NCBI GenBank assembly: GCA_913020725.1
Contig: CAJWCD010000019.1
Coordinates: 1-33,245 of the forward strand
Length of the DNA: 33,245 nt
Reading direction: 5' to 3'
Origin: an uncultured Pseudomonadota bacterium
GTDB lineage: Bacteria > SAR324 > NAC60-12
The translations under genes and the position numbers were made by a program. This document shows, one piece after another, positions 1 to 22,849 of this stretch. The number at the start of each line of letters is the position of its first letter. The first letter of the stretch is position 1. The notes beneath the pieces were generated by a model that was not told the DNA's origin, searched no databases, and saw only the letters and a list, made by a program, of their open reading frames with translations.

Positions 1-51
1 TCCCTTGGTCGGGTTGGGTCTTCTCTTGTCCCTGACTCCCCTACAAACCTC

Positions 52-79
52 TTGACACTCCCTAAACCAGAGTTATTGT
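52..79 (+). promoter_or_regulatory. Putative sigma70 promoter of the beta-propeller gene
   Basis: TTGACA (52-57), 16-bp spacer, TATTGT (74-79), about 30 bp upstream of ATG 112. Confidence 0.5.
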
Positions 80-111
80 GATTGGATTAGAAATCTCAAC
101 AGTTCACTCCT

Positions 112-1425
112 ATGAGATTTTCCTTCCTACTCCTCCCTCTCCTTTTTCTTGGTCTGATAATTCTGTCCTGTAATTCACCCGATGGTGGAAGTAAGTCTAC
201 CTCTTCTGATAATTCAACCACTTCGTGGACCAAACAGTTGGGAACCTCTTCAAATGACTATGGTCAGGGAGTGACGGTGGACTCTTCAAACAACATCTAT
301 GTGACGGGAAGAACCTATGGAGGACTCGACGGGAACACCAATTCGGGGGGTGAGGACCTCTTTCTGGTGAAGTATTACGACAATGGAACCAAACAGTGGA
401 CCCAACAGTTGGGAACCTCTTCAGATGACGAAGGGTGGGGAGTAACGGTGGACTCATCAGACAACATCTATGTGACGGGAAGAACCAATGGAGGACTGGA
501 CGGGAACACCAACTCGGGGAGTTATGACATTTTTCTGGTGAAGTACAACTCGAGTGGAACCAAACAGTGGACAAAACAGTTGGGAACATCTTCAGGTGAC
601 TATGGGAGAGGAGTGACGGTGGACTCCTCAAACAACATCTATGTAACGGGATACACCCAAGGAGGACTCGACGGGAACACCAGTTCGGGGAGTAGGGACA
701 TCTTTTTGGTGAAGTATTACGACAATGGGACCAAACAGTGGACCAAACAGTTGGGAACCTCTTCAGATGACTATGGTTATGGAGTGACAGTGGACTCCTC
801 GGACAACCTCTACGTGACGGGATACACCTCTGGAGGACTCGACGGGAACACCAGTTCGGGGGATAAAGACCTCTTCCTTGTCAAGTACAATTCTAGTGGG
901 ACCAAACAGTGGACCAAACAGTTGGGAACCTCTTCAACTGACAGAGGGTTTGGAGTAACGGTGGACTCCTCAAACAACATCTATGTAACGGGATACACCC
1001 AAGGAGGACTCGACGGGAACACCAACTCGGGGAGTTATGACATTTTTCTGGTGAAGTACAACTCAAGTGGGACGAAACAGTGGACCAAACAGTTGGGGAC
1101 CTCTTCATCTGAGGGGGGGGTTGGAGTGACAGTGGACTCTTCAGACAACATCTATGTGACGGGATACACCAATGGAGGACTGGACGGGAACACCAGTTCG
1201 GGGGGTTATGACCTCATTCTTGTGAAATACAACTCAAGTGGGACGAAACAGTGGACCCAACAGTTAGGAACCTCTTCAAATGAATGGGGTGAGGGAGTGA
1301 CGGTGGACTCATCGGACAACCTCTCTGTGACGGGATACACCTCTGGGGGACTGGACGGGAACACCAGTTCGGGGGGTAATGACATCTTTTTGGTGAAGTA
1401 CAACTCGAGTGGGATCAAGCAGTGA
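112..1425 (+). CDS. SBBP-type beta-propeller repeat lipoprotein (7 x 57-aa repeats), alanine-free
   Basis: Hydrophobic signal peptide ending in lipobox-like ILS-C; seven repeats WTKQLGTSSxDxGxGVTVDSSxNIYVTGxTxGGLDGNTxSGxxDIFLVKYxxxGTKQ. Confidence 0.9.
   Translation: MRFSFLLLPLLFLGLIILSCNSPDGGSKSTSSDNSTTSWTKQLGTSSNDYGQGVTVDSSNNIYVTGRTYGGLDGNTNSGGEDLFLVKYYDNGTKQWTQQLGTSSDDEGWGVTVDSSDNIYVTGRTNGGLDGNTNSGSYDIFLVKYNSSGTKQWTKQLGTSSGDYGRGVTVDSSNNIYVTGYTQGGLDGNTSSGSRDIFLVKYYDNGTKQWTKQLGTSSDDYGYGVTVDSSDNLYVTGYTSGGLDGNTSSGDKDLFLVKYNSSGTKQWTKQLGTSSTDRGFGVTVDSSNNIYVTGYTQGGLDGNTNSGSYDIFLVKYNSSGTKQWTKQLGTSSSEGGVGVTVDSSDNIYVTGYTNGGLDGNTSSGGYDLILVKYNSSGTKQWTQQLGTSSNEWGEGVTVDSSDNLSVTGYTSGGLDGNTSSGGNDIFLVKYNSSGIKQ
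226..1422 (+). repeat. Intragenic tandem repeat, 7 x 171 bp
   Basis: Units start at 226, 397, 568, 739, 910, 1081 and 1252; the TGA stop (1423-1425) lies exactly where the TGG of an eighth unit would begin. Confidence 0.95.
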
Positions 1426-1514
1426 GGGGGGTTCGGACACCGGACAGGGGCGTTCTGACCATTGGGCGAGGGTCCAGTAGCTGCTATCGGCTCAACTCGG
1501 CACCGCAAGCGTGA

Positions 1515-1691
1515 GGCGACAATGTGACGGTCGGAAGCACGGTGTTCAACCGCACGTGGGTCTTCGACTTCGGACAGGAGCCGGACAGCTACAGCGTCCA
1601 CGAAATCCGGGTCAAGGCCAGCCCGACGTTGACGGACCAGCAGGGCAACACGCTCGTGGAGGATTTCGTCACGCGGATTTATGTCTATTGA
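1515..1691 (+). pseudogene. C-terminal remnant of a bacterial Ig-like (Big_5/SbsA-type) domain gene
   Basis: Frame absent from the ORF track reads GDNVTVGSTVFNRTWVFDFGQEPDSYSVHEIRVKASPTLTDQQGNTLVEDFVTRIYVY*, with the DxxGNxL motif and host-like GC3-rich codons; preceded by an in-frame TGA (1512-1514). Confidence 0.55.
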
Positions 1692-1822: not shown

Positions 1823-1955
1823 TTATAGTAAAATCCATTAAAAATCGAACACTATGACTTAGCGGTGACATCTAATAAATATTATTGAATATCAATGAAT
1901 TGGCTGTTTGTATCCCAGTCTAAATGTGTCCTAGAACCAGCAGCTTTTACTATAA
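1823..1955. mobile_element. Possible MITE (Correia/IS630-like TATAG termini)
   Basis: AT-rich non-coding block of about 130 bp bounded by a perfect 11-bp inverted repeat TTATAGTAAAA (1823-1833) / TTTTACTATAA (1945-1955). Confidence 0.4.
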
Positions 1956-1981
1956 CGGTACGCCATCACTAACGATTTGTT

Positions 1982-16495: not shown

Positions 16496-17326
16496 ATGAT
16501 CATGAGACACATCACCTGCGCTGTCGTGTTCTTGCTGGGATTGACCACACCCTTGTGGGCCGTCGAGTGCAAGGATCTCGATTCCAAGGCCAAGATCCAA
16601 CAGTTCCTCACCAAAGCTATGGACTCGAACCCGTTGCTGCGGGCAAAAGTCAGTGCAAAGTTTGAGGTCAGTCCATGCGAGGGCAAGGCCTGCAAATCGA
16701 AGAAGCTCCGGAAATCCTTTGCGGAAACCATCCACTTGGTGCGCAGTGGCAAGAACGCCCGGCTCTATTTTGTGAAGGGCGATCACGCGCCCGGCTGTCT
16801 GGTGCGGCGGGGTCAGCGACGCTTCCTCTGCTCCTCCTGCCGTTCCGGAAGCAACGAAAGCTGCCGGAGTTTCACGGCCAGCGATTCAAGCACTTGGCCT
16901 GGAACCAACATCGACACCTCCGATTTCAACCTGCTCAAAAAAGACATCTCCTCAGCAAAATGCCAGCCGCTCAAGAACAAGCAGGGCTTTCTGATGATCG
17001 AAAGTCTCCGGAGCGCCAAGCCCTATGACCGCATCCTCAGTTACTATGACAAGCAGAAGGAGGTGCCCATCACCGTGAACTTCTTCAACAAAGGTGTGCT
17101 GCGCAAGGTTTACCGTTTTTTCCCAAAATACTATGTGAAGGTCAAGGGTCAGTGGTTTTCCACCGTGATGCGCGTCCGCACCACCAAGGGGCGCGAAAAA
17201 GCCTACCTCTTTGAAACCCTCCTCCATATTCCTCGCAGCAAGGGTCGTCCGCAACTCTACCTGAATCCCAAGAAAGACCCCGCTCTGCGCACCGTGAGTT
17301 TGGACTCGTTGTTCGCCACCAACTGA
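16496..17326 (+). CDS. Secreted LolA-like (outer membrane lipoprotein-sorting family) protein, basic and Cys-rich
   Basis: Signal peptide; WPGTNIDTSDF resembles the family F.GSDF..ED motif; YDRILSYYDK...PITVNFFNKGVLRK; context next to an MMPL gene. Confidence 0.65.
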   Translation: MIMRHITCAVVFLLGLTTPLWAVECKDLDSKAKIQQFLTKAMDSNPLLRAKVSAKFEVSPCEGKACKSKKLRKSFAETIHLVRSGKNARLYFVKGDHAPGCLVRRGQRRFLCSSCRSGSNESCRSFTASDSSTWPGTNIDTSDFNLLKKDISSAKCQPLKNKQGFLMIESLRSAKPYDRILSYYDKQKEVPITVNFFNKGVLRKVYRFFPKYYVKVKGQWFSTVMRVRTTKGREKAYLFETLLHIPRSKGRPQLYLNPKKDPALRTVSLDSLFATN

Positions 17327-19260
17327 TGCGACTCACTTCCTCTTTCCCAAACAAGGCTGCTCGTTGCGGAATTTTCCTCGCGTTGGGGTGTTTTTTGGCG
17401 TTTGGCAGCCTTGCTCAAAGCCCATCACCGGTTACAAATTCCAACATTTCTCAAAGCCTGATCGAAGAAATCAAGAGTCGTTTTCCCGAATTAAGTGAGC
17501 AAGAAATCCAGGAGGCGTTGAAACGCCAGCAACTGGTCACGGGTGAACAGGTCACTCTGGAAAACTTGCCAGAATCCGTAGCACTATTTGAGGAAGATGA
17601 CTTGTTGGAGGAGCCGACTGCTGAAGATGAGCTGGAGCCAGAGCTGACGGATTCCGAGGAGGTGGTCAAATCCCCAGAGGAAGTTCTGGAGGAAGACCCT
17701 TTTGCCGAAGAGGGTGAGGACGGATTGGGTTTGGAGGAAGATCCCTTTGCGGAGGACTCCGAATCCGGGGCGGTGATCATCGAGGAAGACGGGGCTGGGT
17801 TGGGTTTGGAGGAAGACCCTTTTGCCGAAGATGGAGAAGGAGCCATCGTTGCTGATGAAAAAGGGTTGGTGGCTGAGAGTGTGGAAGTGCTGGTTGGCTC
17901 TCTGGAGGAACTCACTGGAGACAACGAAACCGAAGTTGAAGAAGTTGAACCCTTCCTCACCGAAGTGGATTTCACGCACTCGATCACCACGCAGGCAGGA
18001 TTCAGCGAAATCAAGGGGTTGTACCTGATCGACCCCAGCCTCAACAAGTTTCAGGAACTCCGGCTCAACACGAAGTATGAGCAAAGTGTGCGCATCCGCA
18101 CCTCGCCGAATCTCTACAATTACTTCCGGCTTGCCGTCAGCTTTACCCAGCACTACGAGATCAACCAGCAGCGTTTCTACGACCTGCTGCTGACCGTGCG
18201 GGAAATCTGGTCGAACTACCGCACCGGCTCCCACCAACTCCGCTACGGCACCCAACTCTTCAGTTTGGGTAAAGTGGACATTGACCGCACCATCGATGTC
18301 CTGCACTTGGGTAGCCTCATGGCATTTTACCTTGGCGATCCGGAAGCAACGAAAACCGCGCTGCCCGCCCTCAAATACAACTACTTCCGGGGGCCCCACA
18401 CCTTCACGGCCTACGCGGTTCCAATCCGCCAACAGACGGTCGGCATGGAGTTCACCGAATTCCGTGAGGGCATCGAGCAGGAGGAATCCGGGAAAAAATC
18501 GGAGGGCGGCTCCATTCTGCGGGACTACCTCGGATTGCAGTACCAGTGGTCCGGAGACATCCTTGACGCGAGGGTCGGTTTTTTCCACTGGTTTGACAGC
18601 GACACTGCTGTCTCCTTCAACTATGAGCGTTCTGACAACGCCTCCATCAATGCCAAGCGCAAGGCGTTTGAAAACCTTTTGGGCAACTATGTCGAGCGCG
18701 AATCCCGGACCAATTTTCTGACCCTTGAACTTGATGCAACTTGGCAGAATTACGTTTGGAAACTAGACCTCGGCCTTTTTGACCAGAAGAACGCCTACTC
18801 CTACGAAGCACCCACTTCCAGCAAACTGAACTTCTCCACCGTCCGGGCGCCTTATCGAGCTTGGGCGACCTCACTGGAAACCTCCACCGCTTACGGATAC
18901 GGAATCGTCGTGCTGTCCCAGCGACACTTCTCCAACGTGCCCGCGAACTCTCACCTCATCCTCTACGAAAACGAATCCAGCCTCGTCAACCGAGCCCGGA
19001 ACGTGGAGCGCTGGCAGTTGACCGGAATTGGTGTGCTGGAACCCACCGACGACTTGAGGGTGGCCTTAGTGGGTTACACGACTTGGCCGTTCTCACAGCG
19101 GGCGTTGATCGCCCAACTCACTTGGGATCGTGTGAAGGCGAACAACCAGTGGTCCATGCGGCTGGTACGCTTGGACACCGATACGCAAAAAATGTTGGGC
19201 AGTCCGGTTTCCTCGACCCAAGTGTTCGTGGTTTACACCGAGAAGTTCAAAACCGACTGA
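17326..19260 (+). CDS. Putative outer-membrane beta-barrel protein (DUF1302-like) with acidic N-terminal repeats
   Basis: Signal peptide, E/D-rich tract, then amphipathic aromatic strands (VREIW..Y, LRYGTQLFSLGK.D); TGATG coupling to the upstream gene. Confidence 0.6.
   Translation: MRLTSSFPNKAARCGIFLALGCFLAFGSLAQSPSPVTNSNISQSLIEEIKSRFPELSEQEIQEALKRQQLVTGEQVTLENLPESVALFEEDDLLEEPTAEDELEPELTDSEEVVKSPEEVLEEDPFAEEGEDGLGLEEDPFAEDSESGAVIIEEDGAGLGLEEDPFAEDGEGAIVADEKGLVAESVEVLVGSLEELTGDNETEVEEVEPFLTEVDFTHSITTQAGFSEIKGLYLIDPSLNKFQELRLNTKYEQSVRIRTSPNLYNYFRLAVSFTQHYEINQQRFYDLLLTVREIWSNYRTGSHQLRYGTQLFSLGKVDIDRTIDVLHLGSLMAFYLGDPEATKTALPALKYNYFRGPHTFTAYAVPIRQQTVGMEFTEFREGIEQEESGKKSEGGSILRDYLGLQYQWSGDILDARVGFFHWFDSDTAVSFNYERSDNASINAKRKAFENLLGNYVERESRTNFLTLELDATWQNYVWKLDLGLFDQKNAYSYEAPTSSKLNFSTVRAPYRAWATSLETSTAYGYGIVVLSQRHFSNVPANSHLILYENESSLVNRARNVERWQLTGIGVLEPTDDLRVALVGYTTWPFSQRALIAQLTWDRVKANNQWSMRLVRLDTDTQKMLGSPVSSTQVFVVYTEKFKTD
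17687..17830 (+). repeat. Three intragenic copies of LEEDPFAE
   Basis: TGGAGGAAGA(C/T)CC(T/C)TTTGC(C/G)GA present three times, two preceded by GLG codons. Confidence 0.85.
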
Positions 19261-19273
19261 ACCTTCAGACTCC

Positions 19274-22200
19274 ATGCTCACCCGAGCTTTCCTCCGTCTC
19301 AACCATTCCCCGCTGCTGTTGCTGATCGCCATCCTCTTGGGCACCGGAGTGGTAGCGTGGCAGGCCTTCGGTCATTTCTGGGACGCCGAGCGTTCCGAAC
19401 TACGGCTCGACAGTTCGGTGGAACCGTTCATTGCCCAAAATTCCCAAGCCTATCAGGACATGTTGCGGGCGCAGGCGGCCTTTGGCCGGGACGAAGTGCT
19501 GGTGGTGGCGGTGGAGTACACGGATCGTCGGATTCTGGACACGAGTTTTTTTGAAATCATCGCAACGCTGGAGCAAGAACTCACCGCAACCATCCCCGGA
19601 AATCTCCGGATCACATCACTGCTGAACGCACCCAAGCTACAGGGATCATGCTCTGGAAAAACCCACTTCCATCAGGAAACGCTGGGGTCAATCTGCGTGT
19701 CTGTGCTGGAGCGCTACCATCAAGAGTTGAGCTGCCTTGAACAAGCCAGCAGTGTCGTGCCGGGTGATGCCGGAATCGAATCCGAGTTGGAACACTCGCT
19801 GGAGGAAGAACTCAACGACTTGCCTGCAAGCTTGGAAGCCGAGCAGTTGGAACTCGGACTGGAGGAAGACATTGCCGTTGACGACTCCGGGACTCCGCTG
19901 CTGCAAGCTGCCGATTCCTCCGACATCACATCAACTCAAGGAGGATCCACGGAATGGCTCTGTGACGAGGATGCGGCGGAACAAACACCGAAATCGCTCC
20001 GCAGCGTCGCCGACCGTGAGGTCAATAAAGCCGTTGGCAACATCACGAATGATCCCCTGCTCCTGCGAGACTTGCTCTCTCTGGATGGCAGAACCGCCGC
20101 GCTTGTGCTGAATTTTCCTCCAGAAGTGCGGGCGGAGTCAACTTTGGTGCAGGAAAGCTTGGCGAAGGTCCTCCACACGCCCAGAAGCTTTGCAACCCGG
20201 CAAGGGAACCGTTCGGTCCGGATTGCTTATGCAGGGCCATCGCGGATGGTTTACGAAGCCTCAGCATTGATGCGTGAAGATTTGCGGTTGATTCTGCCGT
20301 TGAGTTTGTCCTTGATGCTCATCCTGTTGTTTCTTGCGTTCCGAAACGTCAAAGGCGTGATCATTCCGGCAAGCACCGTGGTGCTGGGATTGGTGTGGAC
20401 CGCCGGAGCGATGGCGCTGCTGGGGGATGTCCTCAACCTTGTCACGCTCGCATGTGCCCCGATCCTCATCTGTGTGGGCAACGGCTACGTCATCAAGCTG
20501 CTCCACCAGTTCCGGCTCACGCGAACGAGTTTCGCCGCCCAGCCACAGGCCGCGATCGAGGAACAGCTTCACGAACAAATCCAAGGCACGGTGAGCCACT
20601 CCGTGGTTCCGGTGAGTGTTACCGCGCTGACCACGGTTGCTGGATTTGCGGCTTTGACGATCAGTCCGATTCCAGCGATTCAGCAGTTGGGCGTGTACTC
20701 CTCGGTGGGCATTTTTGCAATCAACTTCCTGACCCTGACCTTTGCTCCCGCGTTGTTGCACTACCTCCCATTGCCTGCTCTTGATTTGGGCGCGGGAACA
20801 CAGGACTGGATCAGTTCCGGAATGAACAAGCTGGCGGGAATGCTGCAGAAACGCTCCAAGCAGGTGATTGTCGCATGGGTTGTGGTTGCGGGATTCGCAG
20901 TCTTGGGCTTTCCCAATCTTCAAGTGGACAGTAGTTCGAACTCGCTGCCTCAGGAACACCCCGCGAACCAAGACCTTGATCTGGTGCAAACTGCTCTTGC
21001 CGGGACCGACACGTTGAGGATCGTGTTCGAGCAATTGGAGCGTCCGGACGCGCCGGGATTGCAAACCGCCCAAACCATCTGGGGCCTGCGATCATTGCAG
21101 CACTGGCTGGAAAACACGGATGGCAACGCCGGACTCGCGGACTTGTCGGGGGTGCAGGTGGACAAGGTGTATTCTCCGGTTCCGTATCTGGAGCAAACGC
21201 GGCAGGGATTGTCGAAGTTGACGGATGAGGAAGTCGAGCGTTTCTTCACGATCCTCAAGGAGCGTAGCGGATTGGCGTTTCTGAGTGATGACGGCAAGAT
21301 GCTGCAAATCACGATTCGGATGCGGGTTTCGGGATCGTCGGCCTTCCTGTCGCTGACCGAGCGGCTGGAGCAAAAAATTCCGGAGTTCGTCCCGCACCTG
21401 CGCTTCCAGTTCACCGGCAGCGGCGTGCTGGCCAGCGAATCGGCAAACAACATCGCCAAGGGACAGGTGCAAAGTGTCCTCATCGCGCTGGCGATTGTCT
21501 TCACTCTGCTTTCGCTGATGTTTCTCTCGTGGAAGATGGGCCTGATTGCCCTCTTCCCCAACTTGGTTGCGGTGCTGTTGTTTTTCGGAGGCTTGGGCTG
21601 GGCGGGAATTTCCATTGGCGTGACCATCTCTGTGATTGCGGCCATCGCACTCGGTATCGGAGTGGATGACGACATCCACTTCCTCAGTCACTATAGCACC
21701 GCCGCCAACAAACTCCGGGACAAACGGGCGGCTTCGCTGCACACGATTCGTCAGGTGGGACAACCGATGGTCGCTTCAACTATCACCCTCTTCTTCGGAT
21801 TCATTCTGCTCGGCTTCTCCGGAATGCAGGCGCAGGCACTCTTCGGAGTGCTAACGGCTCTCACGTTGTTGGCGTGTTTGTTCATCGACCTCAGTTTTCT
21901 GCCTGCGGTGGTGATGGAAACCGGTCTGATCACCGTGTGGGATTATCTTGGACTCCGGATCGACCACAGCCTGCTCAACCGGATTGGCATTTTCCGAGGC
22001 ATGAACGTCCACGAGGCCAAGCTCGCCACCCTGATGGCCTTCACTCAGGAAATGCAGGACGGGGATCCGCTCTTCCGACAAGGCGACGCCGGAAGCGAAT
22101 TGTTTGTGATCCTCAACGGCTCGGTGCGGGTGTATTTGGAAGGAAAGCAGGGTGAGACCACGCTGGCAATCTTGGAAACCGGCACGTCGCTGGGCGAGAT

Positions 22201-22849
22201 GGCTTTGTTTCGGAACACGCCGCGCAGCGCCTCTGCCGCCGCCGTTGGTCCCACCAAGCTGCTTGTGATCAACTGGGAAGGTCTCGTCAAATTGCAACAA
22301 CGTTTTCCCGAAATCGCCGCTTTACTCTTCCTCAATCTTGCTCGGACTTTAGCCCTGAATCTGAACGGCACCTATGCGCGCTTGATTAAACAGAATCGCT
22401 CACAAGGACAGGTAGCCATCGCTGTTGAAAAGACGGTGGGTGAGATCAACCAGAAGCATCTGAAGGTACTCAAGCACTACGGTCACCACACGACTCTGGC
22501 AGTGGGAAGGCCGCTGTTTGATTTTAAAAATCCGAACAAGGGCTTGGGATTGGTGCTTTCCGGACGGATGCAGGTACAGTCTGCCAACCCGGCAGCCCCT
22601 GCAGTTTTAGCAGAACGTGGCCCGCTGGAATTTGTTGGCGCTGGTGCGCTGCTCCCTTCAGGCGTGGCCCCGGTCATGGTTTCCGTTTCTGCCGCAGAAG
22701 TGGAAGTGCTGCGGTTCCGGGCACGTGAGTTTTTTAAACTCGTCAAGGAGCATCCCCACACCGCTGCCCACCTTGCACAACACTTGGTGCAGCAGCTTTC
22801 CGATGTACAGGATGCGGCCAACTCCCGGCTACAGGCGGGAGGTGGATGA
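19274..22849 (+). CDS. MMPL/RND family transporter fused to two C-terminal cyclic-nucleotide-binding domains
   Basis: Two 1+5 TM halves with large periplasmic loops, TALTTVAGFAAL, ALGIGVDDDIH; then LFRQGD...LFVILNGSV...GEMALFRNTPRSASA and a second degenerate cNMP domain. Confidence 0.88.
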   Translation: MLTRAFLRLNHSPLLLLIAILLGTGVVAWQAFGHFWDAERSELRLDSSVEPFIAQNSQAYQDMLRAQAAFGRDEVLVVAVEYTDRRILDTSFFEIIATLEQELTATIPGNLRITSLLNAPKLQGSCSGKTHFHQETLGSICVSVLERYHQELSCLEQASSVVPGDAGIESELEHSLEEELNDLPASLEAEQLELGLEEDIAVDDSGTPLLQAADSSDITSTQGGSTEWLCDEDAAEQTPKSLRSVADREVNKAVGNITNDPLLLRDLLSLDGRTAALVLNFPPEVRAESTLVQESLAKVLHTPRSFATRQGNRSVRIAYAGPSRMVYEASALMREDLRLILPLSLSLMLILLFLAFRNVKGVIIPASTVVLGLVWTAGAMALLGDVLNLVTLACAPILICVGNGYVIKLLHQFRLTRTSFAAQPQAAIEEQLHEQIQGTVSHSVVPVSVTALTTVAGFAALTISPIPAIQQLGVYSSVGIFAINFLTLTFAPALLHYLPLPALDLGAGTQDWISSGMNKLAGMLQKRSKQVIVAWVVVAGFAVLGFPNLQVDSSSNSLPQEHPANQDLDLVQTALAGTDTLRIVFEQLERPDAPGLQTAQTIWGLRSLQHWLENTDGNAGLADLSGVQVDKVYSPVPYLEQTRQGLSKLTDEEVERFFTILKERSGLAFLSDDGKMLQITIRMRVSGSSAFLSLTERLEQKIPEFVPHLRFQFTGSGVLASESANNIAKGQVQSVLIALAIVFTLLSLMFLSWKMGLIALFPNLVAVLLFFGGLGWAGISIGVTISVIAAIALGIGVDDDIHFLSHYSTAANKLRDKRAASLHTIRQVGQPMVASTITLFFGFILLGFSGMQAQALFGVLTALTLLACLFIDLSFLPAVVMETGLITVWDYLGLRIDHSLLNRIGIFRGMNVHEAKLATLMAFTQEMQDGDPLFRQGDAGSELFVILNGSVRVYLEGKQGETTLAILETGTSLGEMALFRNTPRSASAAAVGPTKLLVINWEGLVKLQQRFPEIAALLFLNLARTLALNLNGTYARLIKQNRSQGQVAIAVEKTVGEINQKHLKVLKHYGHHTTLAVGRPLFDFKNPNKGLGLVLSGRMQVQSANPAAPAVLAERGPLEFVGAGALLPSGVAPVMVSVSAAEVEVLRFRAREFFKLVKEHPHTAAHLAQHLVQQLSDVQDAANSRLQAGGG

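Follow-up and report, generated by a model that had tools for sequence, protein, structure and literature searches.

GC-purged mobile islands of SAR324 bacteria suggest escape from an enzyme that targets GC

The 33,245-bp window analyzed here (positions 1 to 33,245 of the forward strand of contig CAJWCD010000019.1, GenBank assembly GCA_913020725.1, from an uncultured SAR324 bacterium) opens with a block that contains no 5'-GC-3' dinucleotide (GpC) and encodes an alanine-free protein composed of SBBP repeats, and this gene is cargo of GpC-free islands. The underlying elements constitute a tRNA-integrating SAR324 clade that combines a DUF6538 and tyrosine integrase with interchangeable replication and regulator modules and with arrays of secreted proteins that carry SBBP, MORN, or Ig repeats. 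Element DNA, both coding and non-coding, is kept GpC-free by purifying selection. Across a widespread clade of elements, target-site avoidance has been carried as far as the loss of a dinucleotide and of an amino acid; this feature is real, and the GC-purged islands suggest escape from an enzyme targeting GC.

GpC-free islands and their alanine-free cargo

The window corresponds to G000:C19:1-33245, where G000 is its source genome (93% complete, 204 contigs); base 1 is the first base of contig C19, and the GpC-free block runs off the contig start. An earlier note, made from the sequence alone, had reported GpC to be absent from 1-1418 and to resume at 1419 and then 1450, and our recount agrees, with 0 GpC versus 85.4 expected from base composition, whereas the remaining 31.8 kb contain 2743 GpC versus 2612 expected (observed/expected ratio, o/e, 1.05) and no GpC-free gap above 79 bp. 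CpG, which the note described as frequent, is halved as well (43 versus 85 expected). The features of the block, together with two other GpC-free runs of the same genome, are the following.

1..1418 (no strand): GpC-free block, 0 GpC versus 85.4 expected
3..41 (+): 39-bp leader motif, matched at 95% by C101:10310-10347, which lies on a different contig within a GpC-free intergenic patch of 183 bp
52..79 (+): sigma-70-like promoter match TTGACA-16-TATTGT (10/12; frequency in the scan not above chance)
112..1425 (+): Ala-free SBBP-repeat (beta-propeller) gene, 437 amino acids (aa), by Pfam and homologue comparison
112..171 (+): hydrophobic signal peptide ending at Cys20, by translation
226..1422 (+): tandem array with seven repeat units of about 57 aa each, by Pfam stretches and homologue comparison
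1383..1552 (+): boundary zone of final SBBP codons (first GpC at 1419-1420, at the Lys-Gln junction) and GpC-normal flank, identical in G002:C68
C4:56630-61192 (no strand): GpC-free run of 4564 bp, beginning at tRNA-Ala(GGC)
C6:69-1982 (no strand): GpC-free run of 1914 bp, beginning at tRNA-Ser(CGA)

The product of the open reading frame (ORF) 112-1425 belongs to the SBBP family (PF06739; 223.9 bits, over cut-off, seven stretches in tandem), and we take its Cys20 to mark a predicted lipoprotein signal. As the earlier note had stated, the protein has zero Ala, and GGC, AGC, and CGC codons are unused. The lack of Ala alone does not explain the absence of GpC, since synonymous recoding of the same Ala-free protein (2000 random draws) gives on average 61 GpC and never fewer than 41; even a single 57-codon repeat unit would be GpC-free by chance with P of about 1e-4. 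Among 120 SBBP homologues, 18 have no Ala and the median is 25. Three repeat motifs had been named as usual Ala positions, of which GIAVD was correct (Ala 0.82 in homologues), whereas YVTG and FLVKY were not: the YV[T/A]G column is T 0.69 / A 0.24 in homologues, and FL[V]KY has V at 0.68 even in Ala-rich ones. The remaining conserved Ala columns of the repeat are now Gly and Ser in the window protein.

The prediction that GpC-free blocks would be found elsewhere in the genome and in relatives was borne out by contig-wide GpC mapping in C4, C6, the genomes G053 and G013, and metagenome loci. There are three long GpC-free runs in G000 (median GpC o/e of its 204 contigs 1.05), the next longest run being 355 bp. 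The C4 and C6 runs each encode a tyrosine integrase (about 600 aa; PF00589 over cut-off, weak DUF6538 match) that lacks Ala. In G053, a 17.5-kb island that ends at tRNA-Ala lies in the middle of an 863-kb contig and contains 13 GpC versus 522 expected. In G013:C65, GpC-free SBBP genes, one of them 70% identical to the window gene, adjoin a GpC-free integrase remnant preceded by a tRNA-Ala 3' remnant. The integrase is present in 14 of the 45 genomes of the family. GpC-free runs of at least 500 bp occur in 58 of 80 metagenome loci versus 0 of 16 viral loci; in a species-level genome scan, they were limited to 2 of 80 records, both titled SAR324, and the other 78 genome loci (L178-L255) have no GpC-free run of 300 bp. 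The lineage name given to the family rests partly on these two titles. Block starts coincide exactly with tRNA genes at many loci. The earlier proposal that a process specific to GpC operates in a compartment of mobile elements, and that the genes behind it are not in the window, is supported. A further island at tRNA-Sec (G000:C12:1-4189, L008) is a mosaic in which GpC-poor patches alternate with GpC-normal ones, probably representing decayed elements.

The 70 homologues of the C4 integrase include 17 that lack Ala and two with a single Ala, whereas most of the distant ones have 19-67. In a quick, midpoint-rooted tree of 34 de-replicated integrases, all GpC-free and GpC-poor integrases form one clade of 20 (SH-aLRT 99), with 0 GpC in nine members, 1 in two, 4-12 in seven, and near-normal counts in two. 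The nine GpC-free integrases are 31-77% identical and together contain 0 GpC versus 475 expected in 15.4 kb. Since all of these integrases fall into one diverged clade, GpC loss looks ancestral and upheld over a long time, with reversions. In the same hosts, other integrases are GpC-normal (o/e 0.87-1.14; 13 of 30 loci with an ORF found by motif), as is the G000 integrase at tRNA-Asn. Another species carries the C6 integrase region with 99.3% identity over 1221 bp, which points to recent transfer.

Most element contigs are partial, being cut by contig ends. Besides the integrase, genes for MORN, WGR-like, and sigma-70-r4 helix-turn-helix proteins recur across elements; the WGR-like protein (about 100-140 aa) is the commonest companion, located directly after the integrase (e.g., L135:4642-5058), and occurs in 10 of 64 genomes with nine matches in G053. 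The C4 element encodes a 434-aa PolA-like ORF, recognized by eye from its motifs and without a Pfam or PHROG match, whereas a Rep-like ORF of another kind (phrog_11698) is found in other elements. The GpC-free Rep-like ORF L093:2536-3621 may be a rolling-circle initiator, in which case passage through single-stranded DNA could be relevant to the strand bias described below. The PolA-like ORF was rejected as a cause of GpC loss because 149 of 150 listed homologues contain Ala, the Ala-free one being 98% identical to the C4 ORF. In another element, the GpC-free ORF L097:1981-2481 lies directly after the integrase and, judging by its motif, presumably belongs to a GIY-YIG-like family, with the conserved SHASG reading SHWSG there; the distant members have 9-18 Ala, hence it appears to be scrubbed cargo and not a self-avoiding family. 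A captured IspA gene is GpC-poor. Cargo is thus scrubbed after entry, with Ala replaced mostly by Ser, Gly, or Thr, since outside the elements Ala is as common as usual in the PolA-like, GIY-YIG-like, and SBBP families. Modules that are 98-99% identical between elements with very different integrases (L006:5110-5560, L114:2242-2689, L093:2410-2609) indicate active module shuffling. Two loci of G053 (C3, L064; C4, L379) contain tandem secreted MORN-repeat genes with a common signal peptide (MKHLLIIL...), many of them frameshifted, possibly a reservoir of variable surface proteins.

The sequence at about 1383-1552 is identical in G002:C68, where the SBBP end has one GpC at a place where the window has none; thus the junction, for which the earlier note had considered a chimeric join, is not peculiar to one assembly, and the match could also reflect cross-binning between related metagenome-assembled genomes (MAGs). 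Among the contigs listed for four Logan runs, too fragmented over the repeats, none bridges base 1419 or shows the upstream neighbor, and those of runs X5 and X6 join 1476-1810 to different upstream sequence, so the site is variable. RNA runs contained only 0.11-0.18 of the sequence words. Across the family, SBBP homologues range from GpC-free through leaky to normal, some being lone GpC-poor patches in host DNA; no tRNA fragment (attachment site, att) was seen 3' of the window gene. Probably, the window copy represents either a cassette that has recombined into an SBBP site of the chromosome or an island's far end, and the contig break hides which. Two features follow the junction.

1518..1691 (+): GpC-normal reading-frame remnant, by translation
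1823..1956 (no strand): multi-copy element of about 133 bp resembling miniature inverted-repeat transposable elements, with terminal inverted repeats, outside the GpC-free system

The remnant may represent the end of an Ig-like (Big_5) domain, which it resembles. The element at 1823-1956 has the termini TTATAGTAAAA...TTTTACTATAA and about 15 whole or partial copies in G000, with copies also in G002. Farther downstream (17326-22849), an acidic outer-membrane-like ORF precedes an MMPL/RND-like protein with a cyclic-nucleotide-binding-like C-terminal part, both assigned by eye.

Purifying selection and the avoided word

Outside ORFs of at least 50 codons, 15 stretches picked as GpC-free (4319 nt) contain 1 GpC versus 110 expected; since non-coding DNA is also GpC-free, the agent acts on DNA. 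At 33 conserved Ala columns, the Ala-free proteins (44 states) have Ser 15, Glu 5, Cys 4, Gly 3, Val 3, Lys 3, and Thr 1, and the three Ala columns of the SBBP repeat changed to Gly, Thr, and Ser. When GC sites of homologues are compared with the GpC-free copy, without polarization, transversions exceed transitions both in SBBP genes (34 and 20 of 58 sites) and in integrases (74 and 42 of 159, with 43 others, 12 of them masked). Moreover, T after G is not enriched in elements (0.80 versus 0.87 in hosts), and there is no GpT/ApC excess. The predominance of Ser and of transversions thus argues for purifying selection as the maintaining force. The C-to-T loss at GpC proposed in the earlier note, which converts Ala to Thr or Val, does not hold, as Thr and Val make up only 4 of the 44 states, whereas the selection against a GpC-targeting nuclease or modification that it also considered fits the data.

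Some lineages and chromosome-stranded copies regain GpC, GC[A/G] first, and these residual sites reveal the avoided word. In leaky elements (400 non-redundant of 711 GpC sites), the o/e ratios are CGCA 3.3, TGCA 2.2, AGCA 1.0, GGCA 1.0, AGCG 0.47, AGCC 0.32, AGCT 0.23, and GGCC 0.19; the controls, mostly 0.65-1.4 with the lowest value for CGCG (0.36, non-SAR324 set), do not show this pattern. Counted strand-wise, GCT (0.188) and GCC (0.131) fall below the null (0.345 and 0.229, respectively), and GCA and GCG are enriched. A purine precedes 26 of 187 Ala codons versus 2571 of 4855 other G-codons (p 8e-28; control p 0.09), and 57 of 187 Ala codons end in a pyrimidine versus 1351 of 2731 (p 5e-7; control ORFs p 0.014); the loci are related to each other, hence these p-values overstate the significance. 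Retention relative to control (63 ORFs) rises from RGCY (0.05) through RGCR (0.18) and YGCY (0.33) to YGCR (0.47), with RGCY lowest and RGCR second lowest in every codon frame and the order of YGCY and YGCR swapped in one. This hierarchy of survivors fits the footprint that a GC[C/T] target would leave when counted on both strands. Other words are avoided in elements as well, namely GTAC, CTAG, ACGT, GATC, and CATG (0.22-0.33) and CCWGG (2 versus 39), unlike in the hosts and other SAR324 mobile loci.

Candidate agents

As the agent we propose an enzyme that would act on DNA and whose core target, GC[C/T], would relax to any GC. It would normally spare the host chromosome, and the elements would be exposed to it whenever they are transferred, most probably in the course of an infection by a lytic phage mobilising them. 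The phage would mark GpC with a C5-methyltransferase/TET-type system and either cut unmarked GpC DNA or, through its marks, spoil transcription or integration in the next cell; a GpC-free element would escape both cutting and marking. The agent is placed on a phage because a host that cut all unmethylated GpC would require a methylase and would leave its imprint on every kind of incoming DNA, neither of which is seen. The family, the selection, and the target word are shown by the counts above, and the phage is the step that we infer; that a GpC-reading enzyme resides on a lytic phage on which the elements depend has, in our judgment, about an even chance of being correct. A more tentative extension, which we consider possible but doubtful, is that a SAR324 lytic phage has an undescribed self/non-self system at the dinucleotide level, marking its own GpC and destroying or silencing what is unmarked, to which an ancient parasite clade answered with GpC-free DNA and alanine-free proteomes; the clade would survive the destruction of host DNA, possibly even be released from the chromosome by it, and serve as a privileged channel of gene transfer.

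Several observations weigh against the phage proposal. No GpC-acting phage or enzyme was found: IMG/VR viral contigs scanned with element proteins and patterns gave nothing close and no GpC-free viral contig, and GenBank phages contain distant integrases only (<30% identity). No capsid or terminase was detected among 25 (Pfam) and 20 (PHROGs) cargo proteins of the partial elements, so mobilisation by phage is an inferred step, and neither an integrase nor an att site is in view at the window copy. On the integrase strand, RGCR is rarer than YGCY (p about 1e-9 twice), whereas 18 opposite-strand ORFs lack this asymmetry (36 versus 26, p 0.70); a symmetric double-strand cutter alone is therefore insufficient. 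The asymmetry on the integrase strand is real and may follow either transcription or the orientation of the element. AT-rich non-SAR324 integrase loci also avoid GATC (0.26), CATG (0.48), and GTAC (0.52). The 64 genomes of the order contain a single TET gene, located in a GpC-normal, restriction-modification-like cassette, and no C5-methyltransferase plus TET genes were found in or near the elements in G000. This 4.7-kb cassette (G056:C93, L339) contains a 164-aa ORF, a C5-methyltransferase, and a TET/JBP dioxygenase, convergent with a restriction-nuclease-like ORF, and it may be a restriction-modification system that oxidises its own methyl mark; it was rejected as the agent given its nuclease-like neighbor, best PADLOC matches to type II methyltransferases, and normal GpC.

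Restriction by an accessory system of the host, present in some SAR324 strains with a GC or RGCY target (CviJI-like) and its own methylase, could also account for the purge: it would destroy unprotected incoming DNA, and small elements that have no anti-restriction genes would escape only through the lack of a site. We regard this as unlikely, though worth serious attention. RGCY is indeed the most avoided context, CviJI/CviJI* recognize RGCY/GC (PMC3681635), and several restriction-type palindromes are avoided too. However, C5-methyltransferases were not detected in 32 of the 45 family genomes, including the island carriers G000, G001, G041, and G053, these MAGs being incomplete; in the 13 genomes where they were detected, those inspected by eye look like ordinary type II systems. 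No N4/N6 methyltransferase over cut-off was found in G000 or G053 (likewise incomplete MAGs). Other mobile integrases are GpC-normal, as are the G013 CRISPR spacers (128 GpC versus 127 expected). The latter come from an array in G013:C43 (L342; 28-bp repeat, 88 spacers counted in the first 6 kb) and have no convincing match among GenBank phages, with 4 weak records. Of type IV systems, Mrr and GmrSD each occur in one of five island-bearing hosts (both G013), McrBC in none, and stand-alone EVE in two.

An element-encoded toxin that cuts or modifies GpC, serving anti-phage defense or post-segregational killing and avoiding self-targeting, is improbable. The restriction of the trait to one integrase clade would suit it, as would the putative GIY-YIG-like ORF after the integrase of one GpC-free element; that family, however, has ordinary Ala content in distant members, and no nuclease recurs across elements, though most contigs are partial. 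PADLOC, run on 22 proteins including 18 element ORFs, returned nothing for the latter save one weak match.

Mutational erosion, in which methylation or deamination of C in GpC outpaces site gain, has very little probability. One of the three SBBP Ala columns did become Thr, and the GC[C/T] preference would also suit a methylase as mutagen; however, Ser dominates the Ala replacements, transversions outnumber transitions, T after G is not enriched, and zero sites are maintained even at conserved Ala. A deaminase motif search in G000 ORFs gave 8 regex matches, none convincing. Just as hard to sustain is an agent at the level of RNA or translation, such as a GC-cutting mRNA interferase or loss of alanyl-tRNA: the asymmetry on the integrase strand speaks for it, yet GpC is missing in all codon frames, outside ORFs, and in the window stretch 5' of the promoter match. 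Finally, an assembly chimera or a by-product of repeats or composition can practically be dismissed, for although all three G000 blocks lie at contig ends and no listed Logan contig bridges base 1419, the junction recurs in G002:C68, blocks begin exactly at tRNA genes at many loci, the recoding null never falls below 41 GpC, and the mid-contig island of G053 together with the G013 SBBP genes beside an integrase excludes a chimera.

Three other leads were dropped. That host tRNA 3' ends co-evolved to lack GpC is contradicted by the same tRNA-Ala end in 24 GpC-normal viral loci and by the tRNA-Pro(GGG) target, which has GpC near its end; GpC-binding antibiotics (actinomycin D) have no tie to one element clade; and PMC13692203 proved a false lead, since gpC there denotes a phage protein. 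Neither phages nor integrases are mentioned in PMC8364033, a paper on SAR324.

The islands provide sequence evidence for a two-base DNA target under strong selection in an abundant ocean bacterium, and the predicted specificity of the enzyme, GC[C/T] before GC[A/G], directs a search among SAR324 phages and strains. They bear on the purpose of phage GpC modification and on the existence of a GpC-specific endonuclease; bioRxiv 10.1101/2023.12.21.572611 leaves open whether phage marks shield against such an enzyme. Among the proteins of the elements, an integrase, a PolA-like protein, a resolvase, and beta-propellers are available in forms that naturally lack alanine, and GpC counts offer a simple marker to find and date such islands. 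If the self/non-self reading of the phage were true, there would be a gene-transfer channel in which any cargo must first be recoded.

Comparison with known systems

No prior description of GpC-free integrative elements or alanine-free cargo was found in the literature, with supplements and most subscription papers outside the search. In architecture, the SAR324 elements seem to work like tycheposons or marine phage satellites, a likeness and not an established membership. The main text on tycheposons (Hackl et al., bioRxiv 10.1101/2020.12.28.424599) describes an inward tyrosine integrase at a tRNA 3' end, tRNA-specific groups, an optional replication module, cargo, and remnants. The SAR324 elements (C4, C6, and many loci) likewise have an inward-facing tyrosine integrase at a tRNA, which the window copy does not show, as well as integrase groups specific to particular tRNAs, a putative optional replication module, cargo, and islands of remnants. 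They differ in their host, in the long DUF6538 integrase of about 600 aa, and in DNA without GpC; the words 'dinucleotide' and 'SAR324' are absent from that main text.

VEIMEs, the marine phage satellites of Eppley et al. (2022, PMC9618062), are, according to the main text, small elements that have a tyrosine or serine recombinase and differ in their replication genes; for some of them no packaging gene is known. The SAR324 elements are similarly small and integrative and vary in replication genes; however, they are known from sequence and not as DNA packaged in virions, and no packaging or hijacking gene was found in the partial elements. The VEIME passages compared here report no compositional purge, and the main text does not name SAR324.

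With regard to the target, phage C5-methyltransferases belonging to clades I, IIa, and IIb, which act alongside TET enzymes and glycosyltransferases, recognize GpC[C/T], and some IIb members also GpCN, according to Burke et al. (2021, PMC8256090); this target, with its relaxation to any GpC in some enzymes, matches the survivor hierarchy. CmoX of a cyanophage requires a GC motif (PMC12783734). These systems write on phage DNA, whereas the SAR324 elements have no writer and have removed the target instead. R.CviJI/CviJI* of Chlorella virus IL-3A, a virus-encoded cutter with a 2-3-base target, recognizes and cuts RGCY/GC (PMC3681635), the same word that is most avoided here. It differs in belonging to a eukaryotic virus, and a symmetric cutter predicts no strand bias.

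In a broader context, phages and plasmids avoid restriction sites and RNA viruses lose CpG under ZAP, so that mobile nucleic acid loses the word read by a defense enzyme. In the SAR324 elements, by comparison, the word is two bases long, it has vanished completely from kilobases of DNA integrated in the chromosome, and an entire amino acid is given up with it.

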